Positions 28,651-34,040 are shown, counted from the stretch's first letter. The stretch: 64,000 nt of DNA from Escherichia coli (GCF_003334815.1 NZ_QOWO01000007.1); one strand, 5' to 3'. The notes: generated by a model from the letters alone, not told the origin. Translations and numbers: made by a program.

Positions 28651-28678
28651 AAAAAAAAGCCCGCTCATTAGGCGGGCT
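28651..28678 (-). terminator. trp attenuator (3:4 terminator hairpin)
   Basis: minus-strand agcccgcctaatgagcgggcttttttttt between trpL and trpE. Confidence 0.95.
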
Positions 28679-28720
28679 GGGTATCTGATTGCTTTACGCA
28701 TGGTGAATACACTGCCCGTT

Positions 28721-28765
28721 TCAGGAAGTGCGCCACCAACCTTTCAGTACGAAAATTGCTTTCAT
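28721..28765 (-). CDS. trpL: trp operon leader peptide
   Basis: minus strand encodes [14 protein letters not shown] with tandem Trp codons. Confidence 0.95.
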
Positions 28766-28794
28766 TGTCGATACCCTTTTTACGTGAACTTGCG

Positions 28795-28830
28795 TACTAG
28801 TTAACTAGTTCGATGATTAATTGTCAACAG
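28795..28830 (-). promoter_or_regulatory. trp promoter with TrpR operator
   Basis: palindrome cgtactagttaactagttcg (operator) and ttgaca -35 on the minus strand. Confidence 0.85.
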
Positions 28831-28902
28831 CTCATTTCAGAATATTTGCCAGAACCGTTATGATGTCGGCGCAAAAAACATTATCCAGAACGGGAGTGCG
28901 CC

Positions 28903-29784
28903 TTGAGCGACACGAATTATGCAGTGATTTACGACCTGCACAGCCATACCACAGCTTCCGATGGCTGCCTGACGCCAGAAGCATTGGTGCACCGTGCAGT
29001 CGAGATGCGCGTCGGCACCCTGGCGATCACCGACCATGACACCACAGCTGCAATCGCGCCAGCAAGAGAGGAAATTTCACGTTCGGGACTGGCGTTGAAT
29101 CTTATTCCCGGCGTGGAAATTTCCACGGTCTGGGAAAATCATGAAATTCATATTGTCGGGCTGAATATTGATATTACTCATCCGCTAATGTGTGAGTTCC
29201 TCGCGCAGCAGACAGAACGGCGCAATCAGCGGGCGCAGCTGATTGCCGAAAGACTTGAAAAAGCGCAAATACCTGGGGCGCTGGAAGGCGCACAACGACT
29301 GGCGCAGGGCGGCGCAGTGACGCGCGGTCATTTTGCGCGTTTCCTTGTTGAGTGCGGCAAAGCCAGTTCAATGGCGGATGTCTTTAAAAAGTATCTGGCG
29401 CGCGGGAAAACCGGATACGTTCCGCCACAGTGGTGTACAATAGAACAAGCTATTGATGTCATTCATCATTCTGGCGGTAAGGCGGTGCTAGCTCATCCTG
29501 GGCGGTACAATCTTAGTGCTAAATGGCTGAAAAGATTGGTTGCGCATTTTGCCGAACACCACGGTGACGCGATGGAAGTCGCGCAGTGCCAGCAATCGCC
29601 CAATGAACGTACCCAGCTGGCGGCCCTTGCGCGTCAGCATCATTTATGGGCATCACAAGGATCTGATTTTCATCAGCCATGCCCGTGGATCGAACTGGGT
29701 CGTAAACTCTGGCTGCCCGCAGGCGTTGAAGGCGTCTGGCAGCTATGGGAACAGCCGCAGAACACCACAGAGAGGGAATTATGA
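28903..29784 (+). CDS. trpH: PHP-domain 5'-3' exoribonuclease (RNase AM)
   Basis: 293 aa MSDTNYAVIYDLHSHTTASDG (PHP motif). Confidence 0.9.
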   Translation: MSDTNYAVIYDLHSHTTASDGCLTPEALVHRAVEMRVGTLAITDHDTTAAIAPAREEISRSGLALNLIPGVEISTVWENHEIHIVGLNIDITHPLMCEFLAQQTERRNQRAQLIAERLEKAQIPGALEGAQRLAQGGAVTRGHFARFLVECGKASSMADVFKKYLARGKTGYVPPQWCTIEQAIDVIHHSGGKAVLAHPGRYNLSAKWLKRLVAHFAEHHGDAMEVAQCQQSPNERTQLAALARQHHLWASQGSDFHQPCPWIELGRKLWLPAGVEGVWQLWEQPQNTTEREL

Positions 29785-30401
29785 GCCAGTTTTTTTATAT
29801 TCATCCTGATAACCCACAGCAACGTCTGATCAACCAGGCGGTGGAGATCGTGCGTAAAGGCGGGGTGATTGTTTATCCAACTGATTCCGGCTATGCGCTC
29901 GGCTGTAAAATTGAAGATAAAAACGCGATGGAGCGTATTTGTCGTATTCGCCAGCTGCCGGACGGTCACAACTTTACCCTGATGTGTCGCGATCTTTCTG
30001 AACTCTCGACCTATTCATTTGTTGATAACGTTGCGTTTCGTTTAATGAAAAACAACACGCCGGGCAACTATACCTTCATCCTGAAGGGGACGAAGGAAGT
30101 GCCACGCCGTCTGTTGCAGGAAAAACGCAAAACCATCGGTATGCGTGTGCCTTCTAACCCTATCGCTCAGGCGTTACTTGAAGCATTGGGCGAACCGATG
30201 CTTTCCACTTCGCTAATGCTGCCAGGCAGCGAATTTACCGAATCGGACCCGGAAGAAATTAAAGATCGTCTGGAAAAACAGGTAGATTTGATTATTCACG
30301 GCGGCTATCTCGGGCAGAAACCGACAACGGTTATTGATCTTACCGATGATACGCCGGTCGTGGTGCGTGAAGGCGTAGGTGATGTGAAGCCTTTCTTATA
30401 A
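29781..30401 (+). CDS. yciO: YrdC/Sua5-family threonylcarbamoyl-AMP synthase paralog
   Basis: 206 aa from MSQFFYIHPDNPQQRLINQAVEIVRKGGVIVYPTDSGYALG; 4-nt overlap with trpH. Confidence 0.88.
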   Translation: MSQFFYIHPDNPQQRLINQAVEIVRKGGVIVYPTDSGYALGCKIEDKNAMERICRIRQLPDGHNFTLMCRDLSELSTYSFVDNVAFRLMKNNTPGNYTFILKGTKEVPRRLLQEKRKTIGMRVPSNPIAQALLEALGEPMLSTSLMLPGSEFTESDPEEIKDRLEKQVDLIIHGGYLGQKPTTVIDLTDDTPVVVREGVGDVKPFL

Positions 30402-30428
30402 CAAATTGCGTTCCACGGATGGAAGACT

Positions 30429-32324
30429 ATGGCAGGGAAGTTTCGCTGCATTTTGCTGTTGATAGCAGGGCTGTTTGTATCATCTCTAAGTTATGCAGAA
30501 AACACGGAGATCCCTTCTTATGAAGAAGGGATCTCGCTCTTTGATGTTGAAGCCACTCTGCAACCAGATGGGGTGCTCGACATCAAAGAAAATATTCATT
30601 TTCAGGCGCGAAATCAGCAGATTAAGCACGGCTTTTATCGTGATTTACCACGACTATGGATGCAGCCTGATGGGGACGCTGCACTGCTGAACTATCATAT
30701 TGTTGGCGTCACCCGTGATGGTATTCCTGAACCCTGGCATCTTGACTGGCATATCGGGTTAATGAGTATTGTCGTGGGCGATAAACAACGTTTCTTGCCT
30801 CAAGGCGACTATCATTATCAAATTCATTATCAGGTTAAAAATGCTTTCCTGCGTGAGGGGGATTCTGATCTGCTAATCTGGAACGTGACCGGTAACCACT
30901 GGCCGTTTGAAATTTATAAGACCCGTTTTTCTCTCCAGTTCTCTAATATTGCGGGTAATCCATTTAGCGAAATCGATCTCTTTACCGGAGAAGAGGGCGA
31001 CACATATCGTAATGGCCGCATCCTTGAGGACGGAAGAATTGAATCCCGCGATCCGTTTTATCGTGAAGATTTCACGGTCCTCTACCGCTGGCCTCACGCT
31101 TTACTTAGCAATGCCTCGGCTCCGCAAACGACGAATATTTTCAGCCATCTTCTTTTACCCTCCACGTCATCGTTGTTAATTTGGTTTCCGTGTCTGTTCC
31201 TGGTTTGTGGATGGTTATATCTCTGGAAGCGCAGGCCGCAATTTACGCCGGTAGATGTGATTGAAACCGATGTCATTCCGCCAGATTACACGCCCGGCAT
31301 GTTACGTCTCGATGCGAAGCTAGTTTACGACGATAAAGGTTTTTGTGCCGATATCGTAAATCTGATTGTGAAAGGAAAAATTCATCTGGAAGATCAGTCT
31401 GACAAGAACCAGCAAATCCTGATTCGTGTTAATGAAGGCGCGACCAGAAATAATGCGGTATTACTGCCCGCAGAGCAGTTATTACTGGAAGCGTTATTTC
31501 GTAAAGGCGATAAGGTCGTTCTTACGGGGAGACGCAACAGAGTCTTACGCAGGGCATTTTTACGGATGCAGAAATTTTATCTGCCGCGTAAAAAGTCTTC
31601 GTTTTACCGGTCTGATACTTTTTTGCAATGGGGTGGACTGGCAATATTGGCGGTCATTCTTTACGGTAACTTGAGTCCTGTAGGCTGGGCAGGAATGAGT
31701 CTGGTGGGCGATATGTTTATTATGATCTGCTGGATTATTCCTTTTTTATTTTGTTCCCTTGAGCTTTTGTTTGCCCGCGATGATGACAAGCCTTGCGTTA
31801 ATCGTGTAATCATCACTTTGTTTTTACCACTGATTTGTTCAGGCGTGGCCTTCTATTCTCTCTACATCAATGTCGGAGATGTATTCTTTTACTGGTATAT
31901 GCCAGCGGGTTATTTTACCGCTGTTTGCCTGACCGGTTATCTCACTGGCATGGGGTATATTTTTCTGCCAAAGTTTACCCAAACTGGACAGCAACGTTAT
32001 GCCCACGGTGAAGCTATCGTTAACTATCTTGCGCGTAAAGAGGCAGCAACACACAGTGGACGTCGGCGGAAAGGGGAAACACGGAAACTGGATTACGCGT
32101 TGCTAGGTTGGGCTATATCGGCAAATTTGGGGAGGGAATGGGCGTTACGCATTGCCCCTTCGCTTTCTTCGGCGATTCGCGCTCCAGAGATTGCCCGTAA
32201 CGGCGTTTTATTCTCATTACAGACGCACCTAAGTTGCGGGGCCAATACCAGTTTGTTGGGGCGAAGTTATTCCGGTGGTGGTGCTGGCGGCGGCGCGGGT
32301 GGCGGAGGCGGTGGTGGCTGGTAA
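30429..32324 (+). CDS. yciQ: DUF2207 inner membrane protein, function unknown
   Basis: 631-aa ORF with signal/anchor, several TM helices and Gly-rich C-terminus. Confidence 0.8.
   Translation: MAGKFRCILLLIAGLFVSSLSYAENTEIPSYEEGISLFDVEATLQPDGVLDIKENIHFQARNQQIKHGFYRDLPRLWMQPDGDAALLNYHIVGVTRDGIPEPWHLDWHIGLMSIVVGDKQRFLPQGDYHYQIHYQVKNAFLREGDSDLLIWNVTGNHWPFEIYKTRFSLQFSNIAGNPFSEIDLFTGEEGDTYRNGRILEDGRIESRDPFYREDFTVLYRWPHALLSNASAPQTTNIFSHLLLPSTSSLLIWFPCLFLVCGWLYLWKRRPQFTPVDVIETDVIPPDYTPGMLRLDAKLVYDDKGFCADIVNLIVKGKIHLEDQSDKNQQILIRVNEGATRNNAVLLPAEQLLLEALFRKGDKVVLTGRRNRVLRRAFLRMQKFYLPRKKSSFYRSDTFLQWGGLAILAVILYGNLSPVGWAGMSLVGDMFIMICWIIPFLFCSLELLFARDDDKPCVNRVIITLFLPLICSGVAFYSLYINVGDVFFYWYMPAGYFTAVCLTGYLTGMGYIFLPKFTQTGQQRYAHGEAIVNYLARKEAATHSGRRRKGETRKLDYALLGWAISANLGREWALRIAPSLSSAIRAPEIARNGVLFSLQTHLSCGANTSLLGRSYSGGGAGGGAGGGGGGGW
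32271..32321 (+). repeat. glycine-codon microsatellite at yciQ 3' end
   Basis: ggtggtggtgctggcggcggcgcgggtggcggaggcggtggtggc encoding GGGAGGGAGGGGGGG. Confidence 0.9.
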
Positions 32325-32534
32325 TTAAGCTGATGTTAATCGAAACAAGCTTTAACCATAAAGATAGTGTAGTATGTTGCGCCTCAAAGCCAGGCCGATA
32401 AACGTCGAGTCGTTTACTTAAGGCCTGAAGAGTTCAAACAGACTTTACTATCAGTGAGTCAGATGTAAGTTCTGACTCACTGTTGCACAAAAGCATATCA
32501 GACGCCTGGGAAGGCGACACCAAAAGGAAGCTCT

Positions 32535-33410
32535 ATGAGCGAAAAGCTACAGAAAGTGCTGGCGCGTGCCGGCCACGGTTCTCGCCGTGAAATCGAATCT
32601 ATTATTGAAGCCGGTCGTGTGAGTGTTGATGGCAAAATTGCTAAACTCGGCGATCGTGTTGAAGTTACCCCTGGATTGAAAATCCGTATCGATGGTCACC
32701 TGATTTCGGTACGTGAGTCCGCTGAACAAATTTGTCGCGTTCTGGCCTATTACAAACCGGAAGGTGAGTTGTGTACCCGTAACGATCCGGAAGGACGTCC
32801 AACGGTGTTTGACCGTCTGCCAAAACTGCGTGGCGCACGCTGGATTGCCGTGGGTCGCTTGGACGTTAATACCTGTGGTCTGCTGCTGTTCACCACCGAT
32901 GGTGAACTGGCAAACCGTTTAATGCACCCAAGCCGTGAAGTTGAACGTGAATATGCCGTGCGTGTATTTGGTCAGGTTGACGACGCGAAACTGCGTGATT
33001 TGAGTCGTGGCGTGCAGTTGGAAGATGGTCCGGCAGCTTTTAAAACCATCAAGTTCAGCGGCGGCGAAGGGATCAACCAGTGGTACAACGTGACTCTGAC
33101 CGAAGGCCGTAACCGTGAAGTTCGTCGTCTGTGGGAAGCGGTTGGTGTGCAGGTGAGCCGCCTGATCCGTGTTCGTTACGGTGATATCCCACTGCCAAAA
33201 GGTCTGCCACGCGGTGGCTGGACGGAGCTGGACCTCGCCCAGACTAACTATCTGCGCGAACTGGTGGAGCTACCGCCAGAAACCAGCTCTAAAGTCGCTG
33301 TAGAAAAAGACCGTCGTCGCATGAAGGCGAATCAGATTCGTCGTGCGGTGAAACGTCACAGTCAGGTGAGCGGCGGTCGTCGTTCTGGCGGACGTAATAA
33401 TAACGGTTAA
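32535..33410 (+). CDS. rluB: 23S rRNA pseudouridine synthase B
   Basis: 291 aa; S4 domain followed by RsuA-type catalytic domain, basic C-tail. Confidence 0.93.
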
Positions 33411-33417
33411 TCAAAGT

Positions 33418-33446
33418 ATGCCGGACGTCATATCCGGCATTTTTAC
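33418..33446. terminator. hairpin terminator between rluB and btuR
   Basis: gccggacgtcatatccggc followed by atttttac. Confidence 0.7.
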
Positions 33447-33449
33447 AGA

Positions 33450-34040
33450 TTAATAATCGATCCCTATCTGCGCTTTTACACCGGCATCAAACGCATGTTT
33501 GACGGGGCGTAATTCACTTACCGTATCTGCCAGTTCAAGAATATCCCGATGACAACCACGACCCGTGATAATCACCGTCTGTTGATGTGGACGTTCATTT
33601 AACGCCTGCACCACTTCTTCCAGTGGCAAATAGTCATACGCCACCATATACGTCAGTTCATCAAGCAAAACCATATCCAGTGAGGAATCAGCAAGCATCC
33701 GCTTTGCATGTTGCCAGACTTCGCGGCAGGCGGCGGTATCAGACTCGCGGTTTTGTGTATCCCAGGTAAAGCCCGTTGCCATCACCTGAAACTCAACGCC
33801 ATGTGGCTCCAGCAGATTGCGTTCGCCATTAGGCCAGGTGCCTTTAATAAACTGCACGACGCCTACTTTTTTTCCGTGACCAACTGCGCGTGTTGCCGTA
33901 CCAAATGCCGCGGTGGTTTTGCCTTTTCCATTGCCGGTAAAGACGATGATAATACCGCGTTCATCCTGGGCCTGGGCCACACGAGCATCTACTTTTTCTT
34001 TCACTCGCTGCTGACGCTGTTGGTAGCGTTCATCACTCAT
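33450..34040 (-). CDS. btuR: cob(I)alamin adenosyltransferase
   Basis: 196 aa with P-loop GNGKGKTTAAFG; also called cobA. Confidence 0.92.
   Translation of the reverse strand: MSDERYQQRQQRVKEKVDARVAQAQDERGIIIVFTGNGKGKTTAAFGTATRAVGHGKKVGVVQFIKGTWPNGERNLLEPHGVEFQVMATGFTWDTQNRESDTAACREVWQHAKRMLADSSLDMVLLDELTYMVAYDYLPLEEVVQALNERPHQQTVIITGRGCHRDILELADTVSELRPVKHAFDAGVKAQIGIDY

Follow-up and report, generated by a model that had tools for sequence, protein, structure and literature searches.

The yciO-rluB junction of Escherichia coli: a conserved rnm-yciO pair and, most probably, a lineage-specific passenger, yciQ

The trp-topA region of an Escherichia coli chromosome of K-12 type (NZ_QOWO01000007.1) was analysed as a window of 64 kb, and open reading frame positions are given relative to the window start. 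The gene of interest is yciQ, which codes for a DUF2207 inner-membrane protein and lies among genes for RNA-related proteins. Four genes follow one another here on the plus strand. The first, rnm (also trpH or yciV; 28903-29784), begins with TTG and encodes, according to the RefSeq annotation, the PHP-domain 5'-3' exoribonuclease RNase AM of 293 amino acids (aa). The second, yciO (29781-30401; 206 aa), a TsaC/YrdC-family paralogue, has an ATG that overlaps the rnm stop codon by 4 nucleotides (nt) in the form ATGA. yciQ itself (30429-32324; 631 aa) starts 27 nt past the yciO stop, and rluB (32535-33410; 291 aa), the gene of the 23S rRNA pseudouridine(2605) synthase, starts 210 nt past the yciQ stop. 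By megablast, positions 28700-33500 match many E. coli chromosomes at 100% identity, and the genes there carry the annotations rnm, yciO, yciQ, rluB, and cobO. A preliminary description of this DNA had given the four genes, their shared strand, and the three spacings exactly as our open reading frame calls do, and had gone on to hint that yciQ, by its company, has an envelope role tied to ribosome biogenesis.

Curated protein models agreed with the description of rnm, yciO, and rluB as RNA factors, a theme that for rnm-yciO was already published. Rnm scored 505.9 bits with the NCBIfam equivalog NF047791 (RNase RNM; cut-off 375) over residues 9-282 of 293, and RluB scored 630.7 bits with the equivalog NF007976 (cut-off 290) over residues 1-290 and carries both the S4 and the PseudoU_synth_2 domain. 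YciO matched TIGR00057 (YciO/TsaC family) with 265 bits against a cut-off of 123 but stayed below the cut-off of the TsaC-proper (type 1) model NF007919 (71.9 bits versus 175), which places it in the YciO subgroup of the TsaC/YrdC/Sua5 proteins (PF01300). Because the TsaC-proper model failed and the literature argues that YciO is not isofunctional with TsaC, the name "L-threonylcarbamoyladenylate synthase" given to YciO by RefSeq and NCBIfam (TIGR00057) is doubtful and likely an over-propagated annotation. No NCBIfam match was found for YciQ. Its Pfam matches, DUF2207 (PF09972; E 2.1e-21; aa 35-175) and DUF2207_C (PF20990; E 5.6e-9; aa 284-535), together with the membrane helices of the structural model presented below, bear out its earlier designation as a 631-aa DUF2207 membrane protein.

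The presence of yciQ between yciO and rluB is not general in the species. Both flanking genes were present in 5423 of 5426 complete E. coli genomes and yciQ in 3977 of 5426; among the 5423 genomes that keep yciO and rluB, 1446 (27%) lack yciQ. In a yciQ-less E. coli (L001), yciO and rluB are 100 nt apart and the spacer is free of genes. When the window is aligned with it, homology ends right at the yciO TAA and restarts at about 32501, some 35 nt before the rluB ATG. The variable cassette (30402-32500, plus strand) is thus about 2.1 kb long and comprises yciQ together with the 27 nt before it and the greater part of the spacer behind it; E. coli without yciQ have only 66 nt at this place, an unrelated stretch of the ancestral spacer type. 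Most carriers keep a full-length yciQ (3967 genomes with at least 80% coverage). Insertion sequences (IS1, IS3, IS26, and ISApl1) interrupt the gene in several carriers, truncated forms of YciQ are common in the protein database (hundreds of members), and only a deletion remnant of yciQ is left in Escherichia sp. E1V33 (L012). The gene also serves as a neutral chromosomal integration site in many strain-engineering papers and is routinely replaced in production strains. yciQ is dispensable.

To place these results among other species, we surveyed one genome per species with YciO as the query. The best 80 loci, all from Enterobacteriaceae, were retained, Vibrio and Pseudomonas being outside the sample; neighbours were mapped by tblastn, and the Erwinia and Ewingella loci were reached by a separate search. 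yciQ occupied the yciO|rluB slot in 3 of the 80 loci, those of an Escherichia cryptic-clade genome, K. spallanzanii, and K. grimontii. It was also found in this slot in a further Klebsiella sp. and in one more distant enterobacterial genome (L089). The arrangement rnm-yciO-rluB without yciQ was seen in E. albertii, Salmonella, Citrobacter, Enterobacter, Erwinia, and Ewingella. Conservation of the gene order, which the preliminary description had proposed as a check, therefore gave a divided answer: rnm-yciO is kept and rluB commonly comes next, but yciQ is in the slot in those three loci only. Synteny of yciQ outside Escherichia, on which its hint had been made to depend, does exist in the Klebsiella oxytoca complex and in one other genome, as the exception.

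The slot itself proved variable. The distance from yciO to rluB was 86-105 nt in 34 of 69 species loci; by a stricter measurement, of 66 loci, 24 had a gap above 300 nt and 15 a gap above 1 kb, and in at least six further loci rluB was not within 7 kb of yciO. Control junctions in the same loci never exceeded 1 kb (trpE|rnm, 0/68; rnm|yciO, 0/75; cobO|yciK, 0/46; yciK|sohB, 0/46), while the rluB|cobO junction was also somewhat variable (4/50). The cargo of the slot is unrelated from genus to genus and includes an HNH endonuclease, an alpha/beta hydrolase, a LysE exporter, AraC and LysR regulators, a DASS symporter with tartrate dehydratase, a mannosylglycerate hydrolase with a phosphotransferase system regulator, GGDEF/EAL proteins, a choline sulfatase, an AI-2E transporter, a tyrosine recombinase, and a glycosyltransferase. 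"Empty" spacers of about 100 nt are homologous over their whole length in E. albertii, Salmonella, Citrobacter, Enterobacter, Erwinia, Ewingella, others, and yciQ-less E. coli. Like the variable hotspot junctions of enterobacterial chromosomes, the slot has conserved flanks, unrelated alternative cargo, and presence/absence polymorphism within a species. Unlike typical hotspots it is small, holding mostly 1-6 genes, and most of its cargos are without an integrase or tRNA; among them, a recombinase occurs only in locus L076 and the HNH endonuclease only in L021. The yciO|rluB slot is the region's one unstable joint, a cargo hotspot, and this is a modest added point of our analysis.

The rnm-yciO pair behaves in the opposite manner. 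YciO is 92-100% identical across the 80 loci, the rnm|yciO gap exceeded 300 nt in none of the 75 measurable loci, so that the pair was never interrupted, and the overlap of the two genes is kept in 48 of 80. The order rnm-yciO-rluB on one strand is usual across Enterobacterales; Salmonella, Erwinia, and Ewingella are examples. A 2025 paper described that yciO and rnm lie together in many species and proposed, from this co-localisation and a conserved basic surface, that YciO acts on rRNA and not on the N6-threonylcarbamoyladenosine (t6A) of tRNA (PMC12506659), and RNase AM is known to mature the 5' ends of all three rRNAs (PMC7261194). The pair in the window is identical to the known one in genes, order, and overlap, and the cluster, like the RNA character of its core, is known, ordinary biology. 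What is added here to the published link is that the pair was unbroken in all 75 measurable loci and that rluB is the usual downstream neighbour in Enterobacterales. The conserved unit is the translationally coupled rnm-yciO, and rluB is a frequent, separable downstream neighbour with its own leader. The notion that yciQ belongs to a conserved functional operon did not survive this comparison, the neighbours being kept without it in Salmonella, Erwinia, Ewingella, and the 27% of E. coli.

In the rnm-yciO bicistron, translational coupling would be provided by the ATGA overlap, and transcription probably starts from a promoter in the divergent spacer between trpL and rnm. The divergent boundary of the cluster is the trp operon leader (trpL attenuator; 28651-28744, minus strand; Rfam RF00513, 93.1 bits, E 1.8e-19). 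Upstream of rnm, a sigma-70-like promoter match, TTCAGA-17-TATGAT, is present at 28836-28864 (plus strand); it is a consensus match only, and since shuffled sequence gave more promoter-like matches than the region did, it counts as weak evidence. A sequence scan of rnm, yciO, and yciQ found no terminator-like site separating them. This, together with the 27-nt spacer and the Shine-Dalgarno sequence of yciQ, suggests that yciQ is expressed by read-through from rnm-yciO, with which it is probably co-transcribed. The E. coli operon is listed as yciVOQ, and an internal RpoD-holoenzyme binding site has been reported between yciO and yciQ (PMC3946193). Given this reported sigma-70 site, yciQ possibly has a promoter of its own too.

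To see what kind of protein occupies the slot in K-12, a confident model of YciQ was built with AlphaFold2 on a 63-sequence alignment (mean predicted local distance difference test, pLDDT, 82.4; predicted template modelling score, pTM, 0.73). The segments named here are all on the plus strand. The protein would begin with a signal peptide or N-terminal anchor (aa 1-23, ...SLSYA/EN; 30429-30497), with a hydrophobic helix at residues 2-17 in the model and a putative cleavage site. There follow a predicted periplasmic beta-sandwich (aa 33-222; 30525-31094), a first transmembrane helix (aa 246-267; 31164-31229) whose basic sequel KRRPQ would lie on the cytoplasmic side by the positive-inside rule, and a predicted cytoplasmic alpha/beta domain (aa 289-389; 31293-31595). 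In the model, transmembrane helices 2-5 (aa 397-512; 31617-31964) and C-terminal helices with a Gly-rich tail ending in GGGW (31980-32321) complete the chain. In the tail, GGGAGGGAGGGGGGGW, the G and W residues are nearly invariant in the 63-sequence family alignment. The model thus displays the DUF2207 architecture, in which the N-domain lies outside the cytoplasm, several helices cross the membrane, and the tail is rich in Gly and ends in W. No RNA-related fold, for binding or processing, was found in the predicted structure, and a profile search of the PDB with the family alignment gave low-complexity Gly-rich matches only. The beta-sandwich resembles the lumenal domain of Ost1/ribophorin I and the N-domain of M1 aminopeptidases (LTA4H, PepN, ERAP1), a likeness of fold only, at 7-12% identity, that assigns no function; unlike these proteins, YciQ is without a peptidase catalytic domain and without oligosaccharyltransferase (OST) partners. 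A GOLPH3-like domain is also ascribed to YciQ.

Two features of yciQ alleles deserve mention. The O157:H7 allele (L002, 1649-3232) encodes 527 aa and has an in-frame deletion of residues 279-378. The deletion removes almost exactly the predicted cytoplasmic domain and makes the allele a natural domain-deletion variant. Furthermore, codons 27-36 of yciQ contain a perfect 13-bp palindrome, GAGATCCCTTCTT-ATG-AAGAAGGGATCTC (30507-30535), one of about five palindromes of at least 12 bp in the window, which is kept in divergent E. coli alleles (with one mismatch in O157:H7) and absent in Klebsiella.

The relatives of YciQ live in another neighbourhood. The DUF2207 family comprised 4368 representatives at E <= 1e-3, and only two 50%-identity clusters were closer than about 35% to YciQ, which belongs to a narrow enterobacterial branch of the family. 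With family members such as Streptococcus mutans SMU.243 it shares its domains, a length of about 630 aa, the extracytoplasmic N-domain, the membrane helices, and a Gly/Ser-rich tail. Among four non-enterobacterial DUF2207 loci with enough context, LemA lies immediately upstream, overlapping, in three, with neither in one case; LemA is present in L007, L096, L097, and L098. A Serratia homologue lies near metK and speA. None of these distant genes adjoins rnm, yciO, or rluB. The DUF2207 part of the LemA-DUF2207 modules is 25-31% identical to YciQ over the full length. LemA (PF04011) is absent among the genes of the rnm-yciO-yciQ-rluB cluster, where yciO stands upstream of yciQ in its place. In this cluster context YciQ would have lost the LemA partner typical of the wider family.

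We consider it highly probable that the locus consists of a conserved core and, in a permissive slot, a lineage-specific passenger, yciQ. Different enterobacterial lineages would have fixed different accessory genes at the yciO|rluB joint, the K-12 slot happening to hold yciQ, and the position of the gene would then be an accident of the insertion site and no evidence of shared function. The locus offers a cautionary case for guilt by association, in that a gene can come to lie inside a themed operon of the model strain merely by landing in a permissive junction. The functional inference is removed by two checks, one of the population (27% of E. coli without yciQ) and one of sister species (unrelated cargo in the slot).

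A patchy gene with a dip in G+C content could instead be a recently acquired genomic islet, brought into E. coli by horizontal transfer. G+C falls to 0.44-0.47 across yciQ from 0.52-0.55 in its neighbours rnm and rluB, yciQ has a patchy distribution at both the strain and the species level, and the nearest non-Escherichia homologue of YciQ is only 56% identical. However, yciO itself is low in G+C (0.48), and the G+C of third codon positions (GC3) of yciQ is host-like in each case, 0.46 in E. coli and 0.63-0.66 in Klebsiella. The synonymous divergence (dS) of yciQ between E. coli alleles is 0.18, within the 0.09-0.32 of the flanking genes, so that yciQ has co-diverged with its flanks. The Shine-Dalgarno-bearing junction behind yciO and the spacer ahead of rluB are homologous in E. 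coli and Klebsiella. A search around the yciQ cassette showed neither a tRNA nor an integrase nor direct repeats at its flanks. On these grounds the recent island was rejected as an origin and is, in our judgement, very unlikely.

It is just as improbable that yciQ is a functionless, decaying gene in E. coli, a pseudogene in waiting, in spite of the insertion sequences, the O157:H7 domain deletion, the truncated forms, the E1V33 remnant, the clean absence from a quarter or so of the genomes (27%), and the use of the gene as a neutral integration site. The ratio of nonsynonymous to synonymous substitution (dN/dS) of yciQ is 0.15-0.16 within Escherichia, compared with 0-0.06 for rnm, yciO, and rluB, and 0.09 against Klebsiella, which indicates purifying selection. 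The great majority of carriers have the full-length reading frame, motifs found across the family are kept, and overexpression of yciQ has a phenotype. Between E. coli alleles YciQ differs by up to 6% at the protein level, YciO and RluB being 99.3-100% identical. Taken together, the sequence comparisons portray yciQ as old, functional, weakly constrained, and easily lost, under purifying but relaxed selection. Two histories are possible, either a single insertion that spread by recombination through the conserved flanks or ancestral presence followed by repeated loss. The uniform empty spacer across genera favours a single origin with recombination over many independent precise deletions, whereas the ranking of YciQ identities, which is congruent with the species (E. 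coli versus Klebsiella, 53-57%; versus the third lineage, L089, 39-42%), favours vertical descent with repeated loss.

Two observations weigh against taking yciQ for a passenger. The gene is held 27-44 nt behind yciO in three lineages, although the identity of YciQ between them is only 39-56%, and a functional link, too, would lead to such long persistence at a single site. In addition, a DUF2207 gene of the other (Serratia) subtype is found just downstream of rluB in two Trabulsiella species. The constancy of position in E. coli, the Klebsiella oxytoca complex, and the third lineage is also the main point in favour of the reading in which yciQ is a member of an RNA-maturation operon that links the envelope to ribosome biogenesis, for instance by holding RNase AM, YciO, or RluB at the membrane or by regulating them there. 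Its co-orientation with yciO at 27 nt with no terminator between them, the listing of the operon as yciVOQ, and purifying selection agree with that reading, and the modelled cytoplasmic domain could contact cytoplasmic partners. On the other hand, rnm-yciO-rluB is kept where yciQ is missing, in the 27% of E. coli and about 95% of the sampled Enterobacteriaceae species; unrelated genes sit in the slot elsewhere, and distant relatives pair with LemA. No RNA fold was found, O157:H7 deletes exactly the cytoplasmic domain, production strains have yciQ routinely replaced, an RpoD site is reported between yciO and yciQ, and rluB has its own conserved leader. We hold membership in such an operon to be extremely unlikely. 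A variant that would reconcile long retention at one site with frequent loss makes YciQ an ancient, fast-evolving, often-lost optional accessory kept behind yciO, whose cytoplasmic domain acts together with RNase AM or YciO on the inner membrane and could, for example, bring the late trimming of rRNA 5' ends, or the clearance of nanoRNA, to the membrane when the envelope is under stress, and this we credit with only the slenderest chance.

The model of YciQ suggests a periplasmic binding domain that a bundle of membrane helices would connect to a small module in the cytoplasm, and the ligand of the beta-sandwich is most likely a peptide, a glycan, or a protein in the periplasm. In the only functional study of any DUF2207 protein, loss of S. 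mutans SMU.243 led to lower acid and oxidative tolerance and less biofilm (PMC10457818), and in a screen yciQ overexpression improved the accumulation of membrane proteins (PMC3120638). We suggest with moderate confidence that YciQ most likely contributes to non-essential envelope or membrane homeostasis and stress tolerance, which agrees with the SMU.243 phenotypes, the only ones reported for the family, and with the overexpression effect. We are more confident that a link of yciQ to ribosome biogenesis has no support: the hint to that effect in the preliminary description falls on the absence of the gene from 27% of E. coli, its presence in the slot in 3 of 80 species, its LemA-linked relatives, and the lack of an RNA fold. 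YciQ is better studied as an envelope protein of the LemA/DUF2207 type, for which natural yciQ-less E. coli are ready-made controls. Two other ideas about the protein were tried and dropped. Diversifying selection on the periplasmic domain, as in a phage or colicin receptor, was rejected because substitutions between alleles are even (3-9% per domain) with no hypervariable domain, and an origin in a defence system or phage because no PADLOC or PHROG family matched at E <= 0.01.

Next to the downstream boundary of the cassette lies a conserved element in the leader of rluB. Just 5' of the rluB Shine-Dalgarno sequence lies an element of about 21 nt, (C)GACGCCTG(T/G)GAAGGCGACAC, that is independent of what stands upstream; with the Shine-Dalgarno AAGGAAG it occupies 32501-32534 (plus strand) and, as GACGCCTG(G/T)GAAGGCGACAC, is invariant across Enterobacterales, being kept across Enterobacteriaceae, Erwinia, and Ewingella (L001, L011, L092, L093, L094, L089, L003, and others). 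The pattern GACGCC-N4-8-GGCGAC occurs in 80 of 99 loci, some of which do not extend to rluB, and has a single occurrence in the window. The leader hairpin, GACGCCUGUGAAGGCGAC, folds as CGCCU[GUGA]AGGCG, and the start codon would lie inside a further small GCUC/GAGC hairpin. The core of the element, ACGYC-GUGA-GRC, loosely resembles helix 93 of 23S rRNA, AACGUC[GUGA]GACAGUUC. This helix holds U2605, the target of RluB; the rRNA sequence was confirmed as 23S. The element is not in Rfam, a search of which over 27-37 kb returned the trp leader only, with no match in the yciQ-rluB spacer or the rluB leader, and our literature search found no report of rluB autoregulation. Autoregulation of RluB through this element is a speculative idea. 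The invariant stem-loop before rluB is a small separate lead on the post-transcriptional control of an rRNA-modification enzyme.

Further elements were seen in the spacers upstream. The "empty" yciO-rluB spacers carry an invariant TATACT box 17-22 nt past the yciO stop (L001, L011, L092, L016, L019, L041, L044, L067, and others), which is likely the -10 element of rluB. It is followed by a hairpin whose sequence varies by genus with compensatory changes (GGCGC/GCGCC, CAGGG/CCCTG, GGGGC/GCCCC). The box and the compensated hairpin suggest that rluB has its own promoter and a structured 5' untranslated region, in which case its leader would consist, in order, of the TATACT box of the ancestral spacer, the hairpin, the invariant stem-loop, and the Shine-Dalgarno sequence. 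In the window, the yciQ-rluB spacer contains a perfect 12-bp hairpin, CAGTGAGTCAGA...TCTGACTCACTG, with no U-tract (32452-32482, plus strand). In Escherichia sp. E1V33 this hairpin carries a compensatory exchange (A>G/T>C); the corresponding position in Klebsiella is taken by another hairpin, of terminator-like form. Beyond rluB, a terminator-like hairpin (33418-33440, minus strand) lies between the convergent rluB and cobO.

Finally, other junctions of the region also accept cargo in some genera. In Klebsiella sp. L003 (5127-6404 and 12267-16999), trpE and rnm are separated by a Sel1-repeat gene, and rluB and cobO by an MFS-GH3-AraC block; in Raoultella, Kluyvera, and Yokenella (among L030, L031, L032, L038, and L055) the rluB|cobO junction holds inserts of about 4.9 kb. 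In the two Trabulsiella loci (L027, L037), a DUF2207 gene about 730 nt past rluB (from about 13660 to the locus end) encodes a protein 41% identical to that of Serratia fonticola and 34% to E. coli YciQ, a second case of DUF2207 in this neighbourhood, and the yciO|rluB slot holds a 4.4-kb insert with tartrate dehydratase and DASS transporter genes. In E. coli 2020S05-235 (L091, 5654-6896), rluB is followed by two co-directional hypothetical genes at the place taken in K-12 by cobO, which is oppositely oriented, so the rluB|cobO junction varies within E. coli too.

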